Below the pieces are notes generated by a model. That model did no database searches, was not told the DNA's origin, and saw only the letters and a list, made by a program, of their open reading frames with translations. Positions 4,501 through 55,600 of a stretch of DNA of 64,000 nt are shown here, in pieces. The DNA is from Squalus acanthias (Eukaryota): assembly GCA_030390025.1 (NCBI GenBank), contig CM059440.1, positions 21,328,001 to 21,392,000 of the forward strand, read 5' to 3'. How positions within the stretch are numbered: position 1 is the stretch's first letter; every line of letters starts with the position of its first letter. A program made the translations under genes and the position numbers.

Positions 4501-7500
4501 GCTTTAAACACATCCTATCCACCTCTGCAACGCTGCCCCATGCCTTACCTCAGCTCCTCAGTCACTGAAAACCTAATACATGCCTTCATCATCTGCAGTC
4601 TCAACTACCCTAACACGCCCCTTGCTGGCAGTTTCCACCTGAAACGTCAACTCTCTTTCTCTCTCCACGGATGCTGCCTGGCCTGCTGAGTTTTTCCAGC
4701 GTTTTCTGTTGTTATTCCATAAACTACAACTTGTCCAAAATGCTGCAGTCCATATCCTGGAGCTGGAGAAAAGAGAATGGAATTCCTAAACTGTGTTCAG
4801 GACTCCTTCCTGAAACAATACAATAGTCAGCCTACGAGGGTGGAGGTGTTACTAGATCTGGTTATGAACAATTAAATAGATCAGGTAGATGAGCTAAATG
4901 TGGGTGAGCACCTAGGGAAGAGTGACCATTCTATGAGAAGGTCCAAGGTCCAACTAGAAAGGGGAAAAATGTCAATACAAAAACTAGAACACCAGATTGG
5001 ATTAGGGCAGAATTTAGAAAGATGAGGAGTAAGCTAGCTGAGGGGAGGTGGAAAGAGAAATGATCACAAAGGACTGTAGAGCAACAGTGGGATGGTTTTT
5101 GAGAGAGATTGCAAAGGTACAGAATAAGTATATTAATTAAAACAGGAAACTGCTAGTAATTTTAGGATGCCATGGATAGATAGAGAGGTCAGAAACCAAT
5201 TAAAATTGAAGAGGGCCCATGAAATGTCACTTAAAAATCTCTCATTAACCTTTAACACATCTCCAAAAATACCCAGTACATTTACGGAACTGATTGAAAT
5301 TGGGAAACCAAACTATAAGGTCAAGGTCATTAATGCAGAATGGAGTAACGAGAAGGCAAATTAGGAAATAGTGATTAGCTAATGCCACAGGATTTAAAGT
5401 TTCCTCTGCCTATTTTAGTGCAGAAATGTTCCAACAGTTTTTAACGGGTTAAAGGATGACTCCAGTCCCCCCCTGATATGGAAAGGCGGGTGGGTGTATC
5501 CAGTAAGTCACCAGCGACAAGCATACATCAGGCTGCTGCAAGAGTCCAATGCCAGCGTATTATATCCCCAGACACAGTAAAACAAAACCGTCAACCCAGA
5601 GAAAATAAACAGATTGCAGTCAGTCCCAGGGCTGGGCAGCAGATTCATTGCCAGAATCCCAACCTTGGCTGGAGGTACAGAGCACCCCGCCCCCCCACCC
5701 CGCGGCAGGGAAGGAGAGCAAGACTGGGTCAGCGTGTGCCTCTGGGCTGCAATTACTGAGCAGGACTGGCAGACTCGAGGAAAGAGGAGGTTACTCACTT
5801 CCCCCCGCCCCCCCCCGGGTCAGACTGCGTGTTATGGAGGGAGGGGCCGTAGGAGTGAGAGAGAAACTAAATCTAACTCATCAGAAATGGTGCATCCAAT
5901 GAGTGAAGGCCTCAGACACACGTGACTATAAAACAAAACACTCCACTAAAATACTGGGAAACTATTTTAAAGGAACTTAATTCCACAAAGTATTCGATTG
6001 CAGCTTTAATTTAATGCACCCGCTTTGTTCCCAAGGCTATTTAAAATAAAGTTTTATCATTTATTTTTTTGAAGGGTTGGAAAATGTCTTCTTTGTTCTG
6101 TCAGTGAGCAAGAGTTGAACCTCATAACCCAAGTCCTGAAAATCCCAGATAAACCCCACAGGAGGACCACCAACAGCCAGATACCCGAATGTTTTTATTT
6201 CTCTGCTTCTAATGAGTTTCAATACACTGTACACTTTACACAAACCCAAATTAAAGCAGCTTTGGGTGGAATATGCTTCATTTGTTTTTCGCATTTCTCA
6301 GCCAGAGGGTTTAGTATTTTATTGCACGATGATGATACACAGATTAATCCTTAAACTATGTGCCAAAGTACAATAAGGTATCAATCTCTGATTGAGCAAC
6401 GTGAGGAATGAAGCACGGGCCAGCTCTGTCCGACTCCAGCTACAGTAACATTTGGCTTTGGAAGGCGTTTTCATGCAGGAAAGCTGCTTCAGTATCAGGG
6501 CAAGATTGGACTTACCCCACAAATCGCAATGTCCTGATTAAATAGGGACTGCGCGGGAGAGCCCATTTTCATTAATTAGTGTACTGCACAGTGCCTAGGA
6601 GACAGCAGTTTCTCAGCTCGTTTACAATCATATTAACAATGGTATTGCTGCTCCATCATGCACATATTGTTACTTAATGGATTAAAAGCTACAGAATCGC
6701 ATTATTTCCAAGTTTACTGCCAGTGACAACAAATTAAAGCAGGTCTCTATTAAATCAAATTCACTTCTGCTTTCTACCCTGGTCCAGATGACAATTACTT
6801 TTTCCTAATTAATCAACAACTTCCTTTTATACAGCGCCTTTGACATAGTAAAACATCCCAAGGCACTTCACAGGAGCGTTATCAAACAAAAATTAACACT
6901 GAGCCAAAGGAGGAGGTATTTAGGCGGGAGACTATAAGCTTGGTCAAAGAGGTAGGTTTTAATGAGTGTCTTAAAGGAGGAGGGAAAAGTGGAGGGGGTT
7001 TAAGGAGGGAATTCCAGAGCTTAGGCCTAAATGGCTGAAGGCACGGCTGCCAACAATGGGACGAAGGAAGTAGGGGATGCGCAAGAAGCCAGAGTTGGAG
7101 GGACGCCGAGTTCCTGGAGGGTTGTAGGGCTGGAGGAAGTTGCAGTGATATGGAGGGACGTGATGAGGGAGCAAGACTTGGTGCAAGTTAGAATGCGGGC
7201 AGCAGAGTTTTGGTTGAGCTCAAGTTTATGGAGAGTGAAGATGGGAGGCCGGCCAGCAGCACATTGGAATAGTTAAGTCTGGAGGTAACAAAAGCATGGA
7301 TGAGGGTTTCAGCAGCAGATGGGCTGAGGCAGTGGCAGAGATGGGTGATGTTACGGAGGTGAAAGTAGGAGGTCTTGGTGAAGAGGAGGATATGGCATCA
7401 ACAGCTCAGCTCAGGGTCACACAGGACGCCAAGATTGCAAACAGTCTGGTTCAGCTTCAGGCAGTGGCCAGGGAGAGGGATTGAGTCGGTGGCGAGGGAA

Positions 7501-13500: not shown

Positions 13501-16500
13501 ACCAGCTCGTCGCACACGTTCCTCAGCTCACTGGACGGGTAGGATTTCATCGACTGGCTCCGCTTGTGCTGCTCCCCGGCTCGAGTCAGGATACTCGATT
13601 TCTGCAGCGACAGAACAGACTGTGAGGCCCAACACACAGAGAAACAGGCAAAGTAACTGGGAGCCTCGAACCCCCTATGGTGCCGGGGGCCGCAACCCCC
13701 GACCATGCCGTCACCCCTGCGCAACCCCCGACCTTGCCGGGAGCCTCGACCGTGCTGGGGGGGCGCGACCCCAGAATGCGCTGGGAGCCATGAATCCCCC
13801 GAGGCAGAGTTTAAGTTTTATTTCAAGTTGGAGCGTATATTTAACTATTCGCAGTTACCGATGCAACTGAGCTGCTGGCTGCAAGATGGAATGTCCAACA
13901 CCACAACAATTCGCAGTTATACAGCAACTTTAACATCGTAAAACATCCCAAGGCATTTCATAGGGTCATCATTGACACCGAGCCACACATCACTAAGAAA
14001 CAAATTATCTGGTCATTATCACATTGCTGGGAGCTTGCTGTGCACAAGTTGGCTGCCGTATTTCTTACATTGCAACAGTGACTGCATTTCAAAAGTACTT
14101 AATTGGCTGTAAAGTGCTTTGGGATGTCCTGAGGTCGTGAAAGGCGCTATAGAAATGCAAGTCTTTCTTTCCCTGTATCAAGCTTATTTTGATGTAATGT
14201 TGCAAGTTTTGTCAGTTACAGGCTGGAGAGAGAAACAAACTGAAACAATGCCTTGCGATTGGTTCAGCGCAGGTCCGACGGTTCCTTTTAAAATTTTAGT
14301 GCTGGGATATTCAAAATCCAGGCAGTCCCAGTAACACTTTTCAAGGATATTCAAATCAAAGGGTCTATTTGACAATCTCAAAGAAACCAATTTGTTTGAA
14401 ACTGCTGAAAAATTATTTTGAATTTCCATGAAACAGTTTAATTAGGTTTCTACAGTGGGAAGAAATTCTATAAAAAGAAACACTATTATTTATAAAAGAT
14501 TAGCTAAGATCGTGGAGCTGCAATCTTTTTATTTTGTCCACTGACAGGTGTAAATATACAACCACTAATAGGTAAATATATACCTATAAATACGCAAATA
14601 TATAACTACATTTTATAATGTTCCTTATGTGCTTGCTCATCCTTTGATATGACTGGAGTGAGAGTTCATTGAGCCAGAGGGTAATTCCAGTTGCAAAAGC
14701 AATTATCAGACGGGGTTTGCTGTTCATTTACTGGGCGCATTACCCAAAGCTTAGTTAAATCTCAAGGCAAGGAGAGGCACTGTCGAAGGGTTGGGGTGTT
14801 GGGCCTCACGGTGAGAGCGATGCAAGATACAAGAGCGGAAATAATCTATGGTAAGAAGGTTAGAAAAGACCTAGAAACATACCAGCCATTATAAAATTCC
14901 AAGTTGTTGCTTTCAGTTACTCATTAACAGGAACAAAAAAAATCAAAGTAAAATAATAAACATGTAACTGAACAAACGACCACACTGACAAGACACAAAA
15001 AGTGCGAGTAATTGCAGAAGTGTGAACTTCAATTGCAGGGAAAGGTTAGAAAAACGTCAGAGTAGATCACAGGCGCACTCCGGTGGCTGTCGCCACTACT
15101 GCAGAGAATTGGAAACATACAGGTTAATGAAAAGAGGCCACCGACACCACAGGCTTTATCCTAGCAGAGTCAGTAAGATAGCGTGCGTGCTCAGTATTGA
15201 GTACAGCCCAGTGACTGGTCACTTCAGGGTCAGTTATTGGATACACGGAGTACAGCCCAGCGACGGGTCACTTCACACCTTGGAACTGTGGCTGATGACA
15301 AGTCATTTGGAATAAAAATTTACTCCTCAACCAACAGCACTAAAACAGATCATTTGGTAATTTATCTCATCGCTGTTTGTGGGAGCTTGCTGTGCTCCAA
15401 TTGGTTGCCGTATTTCCTACATTACAACGGTGACTACACTTCAAAAGTACTTCACTGGCTGTAAAGTGCTCGGAGATGTCTGAGGTTGTGAAAGGCGCGA
15501 TAGAAATGCAAGTTATTTCTTTATTTTCTTCATTATTCCACAACGCAAAAGGTGATTTGACCCAGTGTGTCTATCAGCTCTTCACTCGAACAATCTAAAT
15601 GTAATCCCACTGCCCAGCTCTCTCCCCATATCCCTGTATCTTCTTCAGTTTCCCACTGCCATCCCACAGCCAGGGGGAGCCCTAGTCATTGCCTCAGACG
15701 CTCTCGGGGACATACTCCAATTAGCGGAGAGCGATCATGCTCCACAGCATCATAGCTTCAGTTGGCATCACTTGCGCCGTGCTCTGTTCAATGTGTTGAT
15801 ATTACACTGGCGTAGATTTACCTTAAACTTAATGTTGTTGCTGATGAGGATGTTTCCCTTCATGAACTCCTTCTCATTCCCTCGGTTCTCCGTGACGACA
15901 GGGTAGGCATGATGTGCTGTGGTGCGCAGAATACTGACCAGTGATTGGATTCGGGTGTGAGGATAGACATAGGTTAGATTTGGCTCCATGATATCGCTGG
16001 CTGTCAGTCTGGGATTGAACATAAATATAATCAAACTCCAGTCTTTGAGACATGGTTTAAAACAATGTTCCCTGTAAGCTCCAGGGATCCCGTGCAGCCA
16101 GCTCTTCAATACAAAAACTGCGCACGCGCTGTATTTTGAATGGCCATCGCCGCATCTTAAAGGGTCCGCGCAGGGCTAAACAAAATTAGAGGGAAGTTCT
16201 GACGAAGGGTCATCGACCTGAAACGTTAACTCTGTTTCTCTCTCCACAGATGCTGCCTGACCTGCTGAGTATTTCCAGCATTTTCTGTTTTTATTTCAGA
16301 TTTCCAGCATCTGCAGTATTTTGCTTTTGTAAAATTAGAGGGAACACTGGTTTAGAAGTACTTTTACAATGTTTCCCTCTCAGCCTCACCGAGTGGCCAG
16401 CCTGGAGCCACTGCACAATCTCAACAGTTACTCTTTGCCCAAAGTGGAATCGCAGAACTCCGTTTCTGACCCGGGGAGGGAATCCCCCAGGACAACAACC

Positions 16501-34500: not shown

Positions 34501-37500
34501 AATGATGTATAATACACAGGAATTCTGCACTCCCACAGAGGAATAATGATAGCATCCTTCCCCAGACTGGGAGGCAAATCACCCCAGGCCAACAGGGGCC
34601 ATGTCTGCCCAGAAAGTTCACAGTTGTGAAATACAAAGGGTGGAAGGATGAGGCTGATGACTGTGATCATTACCCAGGGTTAGCAGCCCAGTGCCCGCTC
34701 GGTCTGCCCCATGCCACAGCAATGCCATTCTCCCTTTGATACCAGGAGAGTCAAAGTCAGTTGGCCAACACTGGGAAGGTGAGGCATTCCATTCAACAGA
34801 AACACCGACCTCCCAGAAGCAGCCACTCAAACTGCCAGTGATTGTCTTGCTCTTAGTTTATATTAAACACATATTTGCAAAGTGACACCAAGAACTCACT
34901 CACCAAACCAGTGCAGGCACCGATACAAAATACTAGCATCCATTTCACCAGCTCGTATCTCCTGACTCTCTGTTTAAATGAAACAAAGTTAACGACAGCA
35001 GCCACACACAGTGATCAAAACAAACTGAAAGCAGACTTAACAGTAGAGGGGTGGGTTAGTGTGGCAAAAGGGAAGTATTTTTGTCTAATTTTAGTTTGGT
35101 AGCAAGAACAAAAAATGGTGAAAACACTCAGCCAGTCAGTCAGCATCTGTGGAGGGAGAAACAGTTAATGTTTCAGGTGTGCATCAAGGGGTCTGTACCT
35201 GGAATGTTAACCTGTCTGTTCCCTCCACAGATGCTGACTGACCTGCTGAGTATTCCCAACATTTTCTGTTTTTGCTTTGGTTTATTTAGTTTGGTAATAT
35301 TTAATTCAATCACAATACTAAAGGGTTGATGTCAGCAAGCAGTTCGTCACACAAAGGGTAGTGGAAATCTGAAACTTTCTCCCCCAAAAAGCTATTGAGG
35401 CTGGGGGCAATTGAAAATTTCAAAACGGAGATTGATAAGATTTTTGTTTGGCAGGGGTATTAAGGGTTAAGAAACCAAGGCAGGCAAATGGAGTTCAGAT
35501 ACAGATCAGCCAAGATCGAATTGAATGGCGGAGCAGGTTTGAGGGGCTGAATGGCCTCCTCCCGTTCCTAGTTTATAAATATTCCTTGAGCGCAGCTGAC
35601 TGGATGCATCATGGGAAATTAGGTGCCCTGCACACGCGCTCAGGGTGCATGCACGCTTCAAATGCAGATTTAGGCAAAAATATCAAGTCTAAGCTCAAGC
35701 TTTTGAGAGAGGATGAGGCCTCCAAATTAAACACATTAGTGAAGGTACTAAAAGGTACAAATACTATCCCACGGATAAGGTTAATCATGTTATACTGAAA
35801 TGTGTCACTTCTGATTTGTTTCTAAGGTTTCTTTAAACCCTTATTTTGGATTGTAGAAATTTCAGTTACTGAGGAAAAATAAATAAAATCACAAATCAAC
35901 TTTTCAGAGTGATTTGCGGAGAAAAAGAATACAGCGTCAGCGGTGTCCCGGGTGCAGAAATAAACCTCCATTTATACAGCCTTTCACAGCCTCAGGATGT
36001 CCCAAAGTGCTTCACCGCCAATCAAGAACTTTTGAGTTTAGTCACTATTGTAATGTAGGGAAAAAATGCAGCCAATTTTCACACAGCAAGATCCCACAAA
36101 CAGCAATGAGATAAGTGACCAAATAATCTCTTCCAGTGCAGTTGGTTATGGGATAAATTTTGGCTGGGACACCAGGAGAACTGCCCTGCTCTTATCTGAA
36201 CAGCGAGAGGGGATCAGCTGTCCACTTCAGGGGGCAAAGGGGCCTTAGTTTAACCTCTCATCCGAATATCCCCACCTCCAACACTCCCAATGCCAGCCTA
36301 GATTCTGCGCTCAAGTCTCTGGAGTGGGGCTGTAACCCATGACTTTCTGAATCAGATGCAAGAGTGCTCCCACTGAGCCAAGACTGGCACTGTTTATAGA
36401 GGTGGTTTTTATTCTAATTGGGGACATAGGGATTTATAATGGGAAAACGATGACACAAAAGTGTAGCAAAAAGTAAGGCTTTGTAGACAGGAAATGCAAA
36501 AGATATTAAGATGTAATAGATATGGCCGCTGTTCAATAAATTTACTTGAGAGTTATTGCCTGAAATGAGGTTTGATGTAAATGCTCTGCTGCTTTCCAAA
36601 GACAACGCCTGAGGATAGATCCATGAGCCAAGGAAAATTTTAAAGAAAGGCTTTCTGTTCATTATCCTGGGCAAATTAACTAAATATACACAGATATCTG
36701 AACCAGTGAAAGTGCTGTCAAGGCAGTGAGGTTGCAAAATCTAAGTTCAGGATAAGAAAAGCACAAAAAGTGCAACAGCAGTTTCTCAGTGTACCTTGTT
36801 ATCCAGCGTTTCCAGCACCTCCAGGTATGGCTCATTGATGCACTTATCATAATCCAAACTCTGCCAAGAAAAGAGAAACCATCAGCACACCAGAAAGAGA
36901 ATGCTTAGAAAGAAAGATTCCAACAGGGGCGGAACAAACTGGGAATCCACTGCAACTGTGCTGTCATTTCACTACAATCATGAAACTTGCCGTGAGGATT
37001 CCATCTGGAGTACGATTAGGGAGCAGACAGTGAGCCACTGCCAGCACCAGGGCTGGCCAAAATCAGAATCAAAATACCTGCATACAATGTAATCATTAAT
37101 ACTATACATAATAATATAAAAAGCAGCAACTCACTTAAAAATCATGATTTAATCTTGGGGTTCAAGTCATTTATAAATCGCTTGATAGCCTTAGCCATGA
37201 AAGTGATGACTGTGCTCATTCCGGGCTATGTTATTCTATATGTAAACCACTCGAACCCCTCGATTAGATCCCAGCCTGCAACTCACATCTCGGGTATCTG
37301 TTATTGTGTATATATACACACACCACTCAAAGACTTCAATTAGATACCAGCCTGTAACTCACTCCTGGGTATTCTATCTGTGAACTATCAGAACACTCTG
37401 TTTCCGGGTTACGTTGTTGCACAGTATAAATGTACCAATTTATCGTGGCTCCCTATTGCTGCTCTTCTGAAATCACTGCCGTAATGTGATGACTGTGTGA

Positions 37501-44629: not shown

Positions 44630-44840
44630 CAAAAGTGAGAAGTCGCACAACACCAGGTTATAGTCCAACAGCTTTATTTGAAATCACAAGCTTTCGGAGC
44701 GCTGCTCCTTCGTCAGGTGACGAAGGAGCAGCGCTCCGAAAGCTTGTGATTTCAAATAAAGCTGTTGGACTATAATCTGGTGTTGTGCGACTTCTCACTT
44801 TTGTCCACCCCAGTCCAACACCGGCATCTCCACATCATGG
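44630..44840 (+). mobile_element. Palindromic Penelope-like insertion (family B), 86-bp arms plus 37-bp unique tail
   Basis: Arms 44630-44715 and 44718-44803 with 1 mismatch. Direct repeat CTACATAAGCAA at 44621-44632 and 44841-44852. Inserted in an L2 fragment. Confidence 0.8.
44684..44720 (-). ncRNA. Minimal type-I hammerhead ribozyme motif (family B)
   Basis: Minus strand TCAC-CTGACGA-A-GGAGC(AGC)GCTCC-GAAA-GCT-T-GTGA: helix I TCAC/GTGA, palindromic helix III AGCT. Confidence 0.75.
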
Positions 44841-52600: not shown

Positions 52601-55600
52601 GCATCCCATTCTCTACGTCTTAAACTAGGCAAGGTGCTGATTTCAATCTTGTTTCCTTGCAGGTTACCCAACAGGGCACCCAGAGAGTGACAGTTACGAG
52701 GAGGATCTCAGACACCTGAAGGCAAAGGTAGATGCCGGCTCAGACTTTATCATCACCCAACTCTTCTTCAAACCTGAAACCTTCCTTGCGTTTTTCAAGG
52801 ACTGTCGTGCAATTGGAATTACTTGTCCTATTCTGCCAGGAATCTTTCCCATTCAGGTACGTATGAACAGAGGCCTGGAGGCATCCCTGATCCCAGGTGA
52901 GCATCCTATACTGAGGTGACATGTCTTGTGGTGTAGGCCTTGCACTGGAGCAGTAACTTCACCAAGTTTCCTGTAGGAAGAGAGTGCTCCTCACTCCTTG
53001 TGCTGATGCAGTTCAGGTTATTGACATCAATCTCATTTTCCCTTATCCTGTGGCAGGGGTATCACTCATTGCGACAGCTGATCAAACTCTCCAAGCTACA
53101 GGTGCCACAGGAAATCAAAGACATCATTGACCCAATCAAGGATAATGATGCTGCTATTAGGAATTATGGTATTGACTTGGCCACTGACATGTGCAAGGTT
53201 CTGCTGGAATCGGGGCTGGTGCCAGGGCTCCACTTCTACACCCTGAACAGAGAGATGGCAACCATAGAGATTCTGAAACGACTGGGACTGTGGACCGAGG
53301 ACCCTAGGTGGGTTTGAACAGATAATATAACTACGTACACAAGTACATGATCTCTGCAATTCACTAGACCAGGACTAGCAGAAATCTTAATGATACTAGC
53401 TGGCCAATTAGCGTCATTTTGTTTAAATTCTGGATGTACCTGCCTTTCCCTTATTTATTGATTAACTTGCATCACTATATTGGTGTAGGACATGATATTA
53501 CTTAATCCCAGAAAGGAGATTATTGGTTTACAGTGGCTGTACTGTAACTGTGATCTATAAGAGTCCAGGAATTCAACGTTTGAATATTTCCTAGCTTTGT
53601 ACCATTCTTTTAGAAAGCTGTCATGGAGTCGGGTGTGTCTAACCTTTTAATAGTCTCTTTCTCTCCCCTCCCCCAGACGATCCTTGCCGTGGACCATCAG
53701 CGCCAATCCAAAGCGAAAGGTCGAGGATGTCCGACCAATATTCTGGGCTTCGAGGCAGAAGAGTTACATCTACAGAACCCAGGATTGGGATGAATTTCCC
53801 AATGGAAGATGGTACAATCTTTAAATCATTACTGGTGTTTAGACCATGAACTATTGTGTAAAGGTGCAGTATGAGAGCAGCTCATCACACTCGTAAGTTT
53901 ACAATTGTAAATGTTTGGCCTGCTACTAGTGTTGCCAGTTGGGTTTCGTTAGTGTGGTGTGTGGAATTTTCATGCTATATCCACTTCAACTGTGGAAAAA
54001 TACCCAGGAGCACAATTCTTGATTCAGTCCTTCCAAACTTGGGTTGTGTCTGGAGCGAGCGTTTTGAGCTGTGTAACACCAGGTTCAAGTGCTGGTGTTT
54101 ACAGGTCTCTCATCGTCAATTTGAGGGGATGAATATGGAGTATTCCAACATTAAAGTATATTGGCTAAAGTGTGGATTTATTTTCTCTCTTGTATATTGG
54201 TACCAATTCACTAAATAGATCCAATGGCAACACTGGAGAGTTTGTTTAATTTCCCGAGCCCCTAAAGCTTGCAAACAATTGTACAGAAGATATTTACAGA
54301 TAAAATCAAGTTGAACTCGATTGGTGGCTTTGCCCTAAACTAGTTGATCAGTGTCTAGATTCTGTGTGATTTTATATTCGATGTTTTAGGGGGAACTCAT
54401 CATCTCCTGCATTTGGTGAGCTGAATGATTACTACCTCTTCTATCTGAAGAATAACTGTCCCAAGGAGGAGCTGCTGACGATGTGGGGGGAGGAGCTGGT
54501 AGATGAAGAAAGCATCTTTGAGGCCTTCACGACGTATATCACTGGGCAACCCAACCGCAACGGGAAAAAGGTAATAGAACTAGTGACCAAGTAAAACTGT
54601 GCTAAGAAGTTGCTGTAATATTTATTGTAACTAATTCATAAGACAAGAGTTAAGTTACCAATCCTGTAGCAGTTTATGGAAACTTAACTTTAAGTTAAAA
54701 ATGTCATTTGATGCTCATTTCTGACTTGCCCAATTCAGTGTTTAGATACAGCTGCTACCAGGTGAAGTTACACCGTGCAGGAGAATGAGGCTTGAGGCTT
54801 GAAAACTTCAAACGGGTGACATTGCTGATTAATGTCAAGATATTTCAATATTCAAGCTCTCTTGACATATTTATGTCCTATAAATGTAAATGTATATGGA
54901 GTTGTCAAAGTCCAGAACCTCCAGTGCAAGCCTTGGGGTTTCTGTGCTACTCGCGCCTCCATTGAGAGTTAGTCGGTATTTCAGACAGCCACAGTCTTCC
55001 TGTACAACACAATTTGCCAATTTAACTAGCACCATCTGTCGAGCTGGTATTAGCAACTGTTTTTGATATTGTCTTGTTTCCCAGCAAGAGCTCCAGCAAC
55101 ATCCACAACAGTGACCGTCATTCTTCAATACTGTGATTCCTCATCCCTCTGACTTGTAGCAACATGATGCGGAGATGCCGGTGTTGGACTGGGGTGGACA
55201 AAATTGAGAGGTCGCACAACACCAGGTTATAGTCCAACAGTTTTATTTTAAATCACAAGCTTTCGGAGTTACAACTCCTTCGTCGGGTGAACACTTCACC
55301 CGACGAAGGAGTTGTAACTCCGAAAGCTTGTGATTTAAAATAAAACTGTTGGACTATAACCTGGTGTTGTGCGACCTCTCAATTTTGTAGCAACATGTCA
55401 GATGATCTGGTCTTATCTGATCTTCAGGTTGGGGATCTATATCCAAAAAATATTTAATTGAATCATCTTACAAATATCTGGATAAATGAGAACTTTCCCC
55501 TTGTGTGCTAAAGAATTTCAGGATAAAGGAGTTTTTTTCCTGGCCAGTATATCTGGAAATTGTTCAGTAAACTTGTTTTGAACTTGAGAATCTACAGAAG

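Follow-up and report, generated by a model that had tools for sequence, protein, structure and literature searches.

Has a short insertion that begins at a hammerhead motif moved on its own, as a ribozyme-headed mini-element, or is it a piece of something larger? The insertion in question spans 135 bp at positions 16196..16330, on the forward strand of the window (the whole stretch of 64,000 nucleotides of Squalus acanthias DNA that was analysed), and the preliminary description placed it in one of at least two mutually independent families of hammerhead-bearing mini-retroelements, another being termed family B. On comparison with other copies in the genome, the insert is found to be a piece, dead and copied only once, from the end of a Penelope-like retrotransposon, running from the hammerhead to the tail of what is probably a Neptune-type Penelope-like element (PLE).

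A hammerhead-headed insertion beside CLCN6

The insert is nested in a MITE (16063..16349; 138 bp without the insert) with 11-bp TIRs and an 8-bp TSD, GTTTAAAA at 16055-16062 and GTTTAGAA at 16350-16357, the two copies of which differ by one mismatch. Short TIRs and an 8-bp TSD agree with the hAT MITE proposed earlier, the hAT label being given by TSD length only. Among 20 fetched loci of the MITE family, both TIRs were recognised by exact motif in 9, which measure 134-172 bp and have 8-bp TSDs with 0-2 mismatches. A second MITE of the same family (L176, about 1330-1520) likewise harbours this PLE end, near its own 3' end. Additionally, 21 of the first 100 listed MITE 3' ends cluster at G000:C6:55.0-57.5 Mb, 20 of them on one strand, which suggests a tandemly duplicated region. 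The MITE lies 55 nt from the acceptor of a CLCN6 coding exon (15822..16008, minus strand) that matches residues 599-660 of human CLC-6 with an E-value of 3.7e-34. Both the distance and the antisense orientation are as previously proposed; since the neighbouring exon is on the minus strand, the hammerhead, within an intron of that gene, is antisense to the CLCN6 pre-mRNA. Nearby, at 15600-15643 of the window, there is a very high-copy short repeat with a periodicity of ~38-39 nt, which is found in contigs of all four of four sequencing runs.

The sequence AAAATTAGAGGGAA is present at 16182..16195 and again at 16331..16344, identical at 14 of 14 positions and with 135 bp between, which bears out the 14-bp TSD claimed for the insert; the right copy overlaps the right TIR of the host MITE. 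A 22-mer from the MITE 3' end has 239 exact copies in the genome, in which the duplicated 14-mer is single, and because the MITE family carries it once, the duplication was made by the insertion and is a true TSD. A search for the empty site in sequencing-run contigs gave no empty-site joint among 15 joints listed (196 further). Two other organisms have contigs in which the final 23 element bases lead into the unique flank, with 20 differences over ~594 bases; this overlap is shorter than the 31 bases of the bridging rule, so that the insertion is not formally bridged. There are hints, then, of an old insertion that is common to other organisms.

At its head the insert forms a minimal type I hammerhead (16195..16231, forward strand) with a predicted cut after 16227 (GUU). 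The core CTGACGA (16199-16205) is followed by an extra A (16206), helix II as GGGTC/GACCT (16207-16219), GAAA (16220-16223) and the palindrome ACGT (16223-16226), and helix I is formed by AGTT/AACT. The described architecture, comprising the core, helices I and II, the extra base and a palindromic helix III, is all present, together with an NUH triplet, and it is correct that all three helices differ in sequence from those of family B and yet pair. The pairing of helix I also stands, although its first A (16195) is formally the last base of the left TSD; the element itself has an A ahead of GTTC as well. In helix II, the closing pair (the G10.1-C11.1 position) is G-U in the window copy and A-U in sister copies, rather than the usual G-C. 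An Rfam scan of the window returned five hits at E≤1, none of them at the insert locus and none to a hammerhead family. In 835 kb of fetched DNA, where many loci had been chosen because they carry the motif, a hammerhead descriptor matched 223 times, as against 0 after shuffling, which exceeds chance.

The active dimer fold has a predicted energy of -8.5 kcal/mol, compared with -22.9 kcal/mol for the predicted cofold and -18.2 kcal/mol for two monomers, so the active dimer is not the favoured fold unaided. Since a lower stability is predicted for this fold than for the alternatives, and since the G-C closing pair is absent, the window copy is likely to be inert. Dimeric PLE hammerheads have reportedly been treated by Lunse et al. 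in 2017. A short open frame is predicted from an ATG within the insert (16250..16330, forward strand); in copies that span a pLTR-ORF junction, this frame stops after ~30 codons, upstream of the main ORF. Judged by its sequence, the insert is a retroposed, TSD-flanked and hammerhead-headed one, with a putative ribozyme of minimal dimer-type architecture and with Penelope/Neptune affinity.

Continuation into a Penelope-like element

Exact copies in the genome (3.7 Gb) number 4,989 for a 38-mer that spans the hammerhead (control, 0) and 9,285 for a 47-mer lying 3' of it in the element, with only 115 for a 28-mer from the ORF N-terminus, a pattern of 5' truncation. We compared 100 copies, taken as the first listed exact matches of the hammerhead 38-mer, all on one contig; among them, one locus is present in triplicate (L012-L014) and one pair (L069) enters the count twice. 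In 79 of these 100, the sequence extends upstream into a pyrimidine-rich 3' UTR common to them, and 41 of the 100 reach coding sequence (at least 291 nt upstream) of a GIY-YIG ORF of Neptune type. Conversely, of 30 loci that contain the ORF start, 14 have part or all of the 135-bp segment directly ahead of it, the segment being nearly complete in L136, L141, L142 and L155. The pLTR is therefore seen both after and before the ORF, in different fetched copies, and no intact full-length element was found among the fetched loci. Adjacent inverted copies and 5' truncation are both present in the family, and the window insert has one difference from the majority of long copies over 93 compared positions. 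It is almost certainly the terminal segment (pLTR and tail) of an autonomous-type PLE. The reading as an unrelated, independent mini-retroelement has to be abandoned in view of the upstream continuation of 79 copies and of the short copies, which have no private or diagnostic variants (13 short copies and the window copy against 77 long ones, a small sample).

The upstream ORF displays DKG, RT motifs (DVQSLYT, QxxGxxMG and YIDD), a C-x4-C-xx-C linker and GIY-YIG; the RT and GIY-YIG motifs were seen in L007/L031, L091 and L093, with the RT recognised by motif only. The Pfam GIY-YIG family (PF01541) was matched at E-values of 0.006 and 0.025, both below the curated cut-off, a Pfam search of the RT half of the ORF detected no RT family, and a PDB sequence search with a 532-residue piece of the ORF gave no match. 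According to the available text of one study (PMC8557442), a CX2-5CxxC linker points to Neptune or Nematis, the motif being common to both, and the accessible part of a preprint gives Neptune and Poseidon as the only clades in vertebrates. From its C-x4-C-xx-C linker motif, the family likely belongs to Neptune. A candidate 95-nt GT-AG intron at L141:1657-1752 (minus strand) spans both tail ends, and its removal would bring an upstream ATG into the reading frame of the main ORF; no joint for it was present among 15 joints listed (28 further) in four runs guessed to be RNA. The window also contains two relatives of this PLE end that are older and diverged: a solitary piece at 4634-4719, with its start within the hammerhead and with a GUC triplet, and a head-to-head pair at 35104-35273 that has no hammerhead core.

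The copies of the family end 3' near +95-101 and near +130-140, about 35 nt apart, and short and long copies end at the same two points. Loose ends at 16295-16296 and 16328-16331 were observed in contigs of 4 of 4 sequencing runs. The ~35-nt segment between the two preferred ends (16296..16330, forward strand, from 3'-end mapping) is an optional PLE tail, absent in 45 of 77 long copies and present in 32. In a lizard PLE, the tail lies between two internal start sites of reverse transcription, as stated in the available text of PMC11167929. One locus (L119, about 1400-1560) combines a 14-bp TSD, an inverted tail-only copy and a hammerhead-start copy without tail, and a few inverted bases occupy the same position in L080 (tail bases) and L072 (ORF bases). 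These structures fit priming from both cut strands or tail ends.

Family B, whose hammerhead 36-mer is found 13,179 times in the genome by exact match, shows the same pattern of two 3' ends; head-to-head pairs are numerous in it, and its longer copies have TATATA upstream. On anchoring 217 nt upstream, the end of a GIY-YIG ORF was found in 7 of 24 loci, L227 also having the hammerhead. By sequence comparison, family B is the end of a second, related GIY-YIG PLE family, and with its own junction to such an ORF the notion of two independent mini-retroelement families falls. The endonuclease regions of the two families are 34% identical over 130 aa, and hence their common hammerhead layout reflects two related PLE families. 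The cleavage triplet of family B, given earlier as GUC, was found to be CUU. Head-to-head palindromic copies of family B are located at 44640-44793 and 55211-55375 of the window.

Copies that start at helix I

Amongst the 100 copies, 21 have their 5' ends at -5..0 of helix I, where 1.2 would be expected from the 5'-end rate in the next 120 nt (binomial P 4e-20); the ends are scattered over ~6 nt, with a noise of 1-3 nt from local alignment. Thirteen of these copies are solitary, and the other 8 lie next to an inverted copy. Because the first sample required an intact hammerhead, a second sample of 30 loci was anchored in the 3' part of the element (three of them overlap the first sample and two are one locus). 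Here 6 copies start at -5..0; the 7 that start at +1..+45 all belong to head-to-head pairs, and the predicted cut site (+31) is the start of none of the 30. TSDs of at least 10 bp were detected in 7 of 13 solitary short copies, the remaining 6 having none, against 8 of 65 long copies (Fisher p 0.002; 12 of the 77 long copies, which have no mapped end inside the locus, were left out) and 0 in shuffled flanks. Divergence is similar in short (4.2%) and long (3.4%) copies. Long copies have TTAAAAA ~30 nt upstream of helix I and CCAGTTC at the boundary, which we take to be TATA- and initiator-like, both being weak consensus matches; the upstream promoter-like motif is absent from short copies, the window copy included. 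A cap-derived extra G was looked for in the two bases before TTCTG of 22 hammerhead-start copies, and these few copies have AG in 11, GG in 5, TG in 4 and other bases in 2.

The best explanation, which we hold to be very probable, is that such an insertion is a terminal PLE segment copied from the front tail site by run-off. We infer both the transcript start and the run-off; the step of running off at the RNA 5' end is, taken singly, moderately probable, and the start point common to about one copy in five likely marks the start of the PLE RNA. A transcript from a pLTR-ORF-pLTR locus would begin at helix I, ~30 nt after TTAAAAA, at the initiator-like CCAGTTC, and would therefore contain two tail sites. 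From the rear one, priming would yield ordinary 5'-truncated copies of any length, and from the front one a fixed cDNA of ~100 or ~135 nt, ended by run-off at the RNA 5' end. A front-primed copy would be complete and would therefore be sealed more often with a clean TSD. For the lizard PLE, the available text of PMC11167929 describes a protein by which AT-rich DNA is nicked and reverse transcription is begun at internal positions, the two tail ends, with uncleaved RNA as template.

The same pile-up could come from a truncation hotspot in the rear pLTR, with the RT stalling or jumping at the hammerhead structure or the upstream pyrimidine run and with no transcript start, the insert still being a PLE end. 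A stable hairpin (-9.1 kcal/mol) is indeed predicted over the hammerhead core, the boundary comes after a T run, and head-to-head junctions are also concentrated in the helix I region. However, a stalling RT should stop before the hairpin (~+30) and not just after it, and solitary copies ending in +1..+45 number 0 among the 30 tail-anchored loci; premature truncations, moreover, carry TSDs less often than hammerhead-start copies (the 8 of 65 and 7 of 13 given above). We consider this hotspot unlikely. It is more doubtful by far that the upstream CTTTTTCCAG acts as the acceptor of an intron reaching to helix I, which is the arrangement in Drosophila Penelope, and that the short copies derive from spliced or branch-cleaved RNA. 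Long copies do have a pyrimidine tract and CAG exactly at helix I, and the D. virilis intron ends at the 5' end of helix I according to the accessible part of PMC4209133, but upstream exon sequence is not common to the 13 solitary short copies, several of which retain AG, CAG or CCAG that splicing would have removed, and no matching joint was present among 15 joints listed (28 further) in the four putative RNA runs.

The earlier reading, in which the insert is a self-propagating, non-autonomous, ribozyme-headed mini-element or a retrozyme monomer, now appears highly improbable. It would account for the 13 of 100 copies that are solitary, unit-sized and hammerhead-started, 7 of them with TSDs, and a preprint (10.64898/2026.07.22.740005), in its available part, derives non-LTR retrozymes from PLE pLTRs. 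Yet the short class, besides having no variants of its own, is not younger, and the promoter-like motif upstream is missing from it. Head-to-tail arrays were not observed; a second hammerhead on the same strand is present in 4 of 101 loci, three of which were viewed and are separate insertions (the fourth being L014). Copies also start before the ribozyme and not at its cut, with no cut-to-cut ends. Returning to front-tail priming, we put at slightly better than even the fuller proposal of a 'strong-stop-like' class of PLE insertion, consisting of the complete first 100-135 nt of the RNA, primed at the front tail and ended by run-off; it would make up about a fifth of family copies, map the transcription start to helix I and show that uncleaved RNA is the template in vivo.

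Relation to known elements and significance

Endonuclease-positive PLEs of the Neptune clade, as described in the available text of PMC8557442 and PMC3846280, resemble the shark family in their RT and C-terminal GIY-YIG ORF with CX2-5CxxC linker and DKG, in the pLTR at both ORF ends with an optional tail of 30-40 bp, and in inverted 5'-truncated head-to-head partners and TSDs of variable length. The pLTR of the rotifer PLE Pen2a_Av has TATA- and Inr-like motifs (PMC3846280, same portion), a pair similar to that in the shark long copies. The window copy is unlike Neptune PLEs in that it comprises the hammerhead-to-tail part only, is solitary and has a clean TSD. In these two papers, as far as their accessible text extends, solo pLTRs are ascribed to recombination or deletion and no 5'-end peak at the hammerhead is described. 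Our literature search gave no paper on a hammerhead-start 5' peak, while Repbase/Dfam, subscription papers and supplements may already describe the family or the peak; 'strong-stop' was found together with 'Penelope-like' only in one paper on Copia elements, and no paper on shark Neptune elements was retrieved.

The minimal PLE hammerheads (min-HHR) of PMC4209133, in the part of that paper available, are alike in type I topology, 4-bp helix I, an extra nucleotide after A9 and a palindromic 15.2-16.2 pair, with several families per genome and mostly single motifs from truncated PLEs. The window copy differs in its helix II of 5 bp and in a G-U closing pair where the conserved pair is G-C. Several hammerhead families per genome with such a layout are thus already described there, with no shark named in that part. 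Poseidon_Ac of the green anole (PMC11167929, from its accessible text) shares two 3' ends that define the tail, an AT-rich target and insertion for which hammerhead cleavage is not needed; it differs in belonging to another clade and in an ORF that starts inside the hammerhead, whereas the main ORF of the shark element starts downstream of the tail. Non-LTR retrozymes, as far as the available portions of PMC7229834 and 10.64898/2026.07.22.740005 describe them, are likewise short, non-coding and akin to PLE pLTRs, with a type I hammerhead, and they form tandem arrays with at least two hammerheads that are processed cut-to-cut into circles. In contrast, the window copy is dispersed and single and starts upstream of the cut, and its family is continuous with PLE upstream sequence in most copies.

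Taken alone, the insertion is an ordinary fossil of a known class of transposon. It serves mainly as a caution, as PLE stumps can pass for independent mini-elements with a ribozyme as long as the flanks of different copies have not been set side by side. Only the hammerhead-start peak deserves specialist attention, and this population pattern of 5' ends is of some use to PLE specialists, the PLE transposition cycle being still unsolved. Hundreds of hammerhead-start copies provide a testable prediction of where transcription would start, and they support the in vitro result that insertion needs no ribozyme cleavage.
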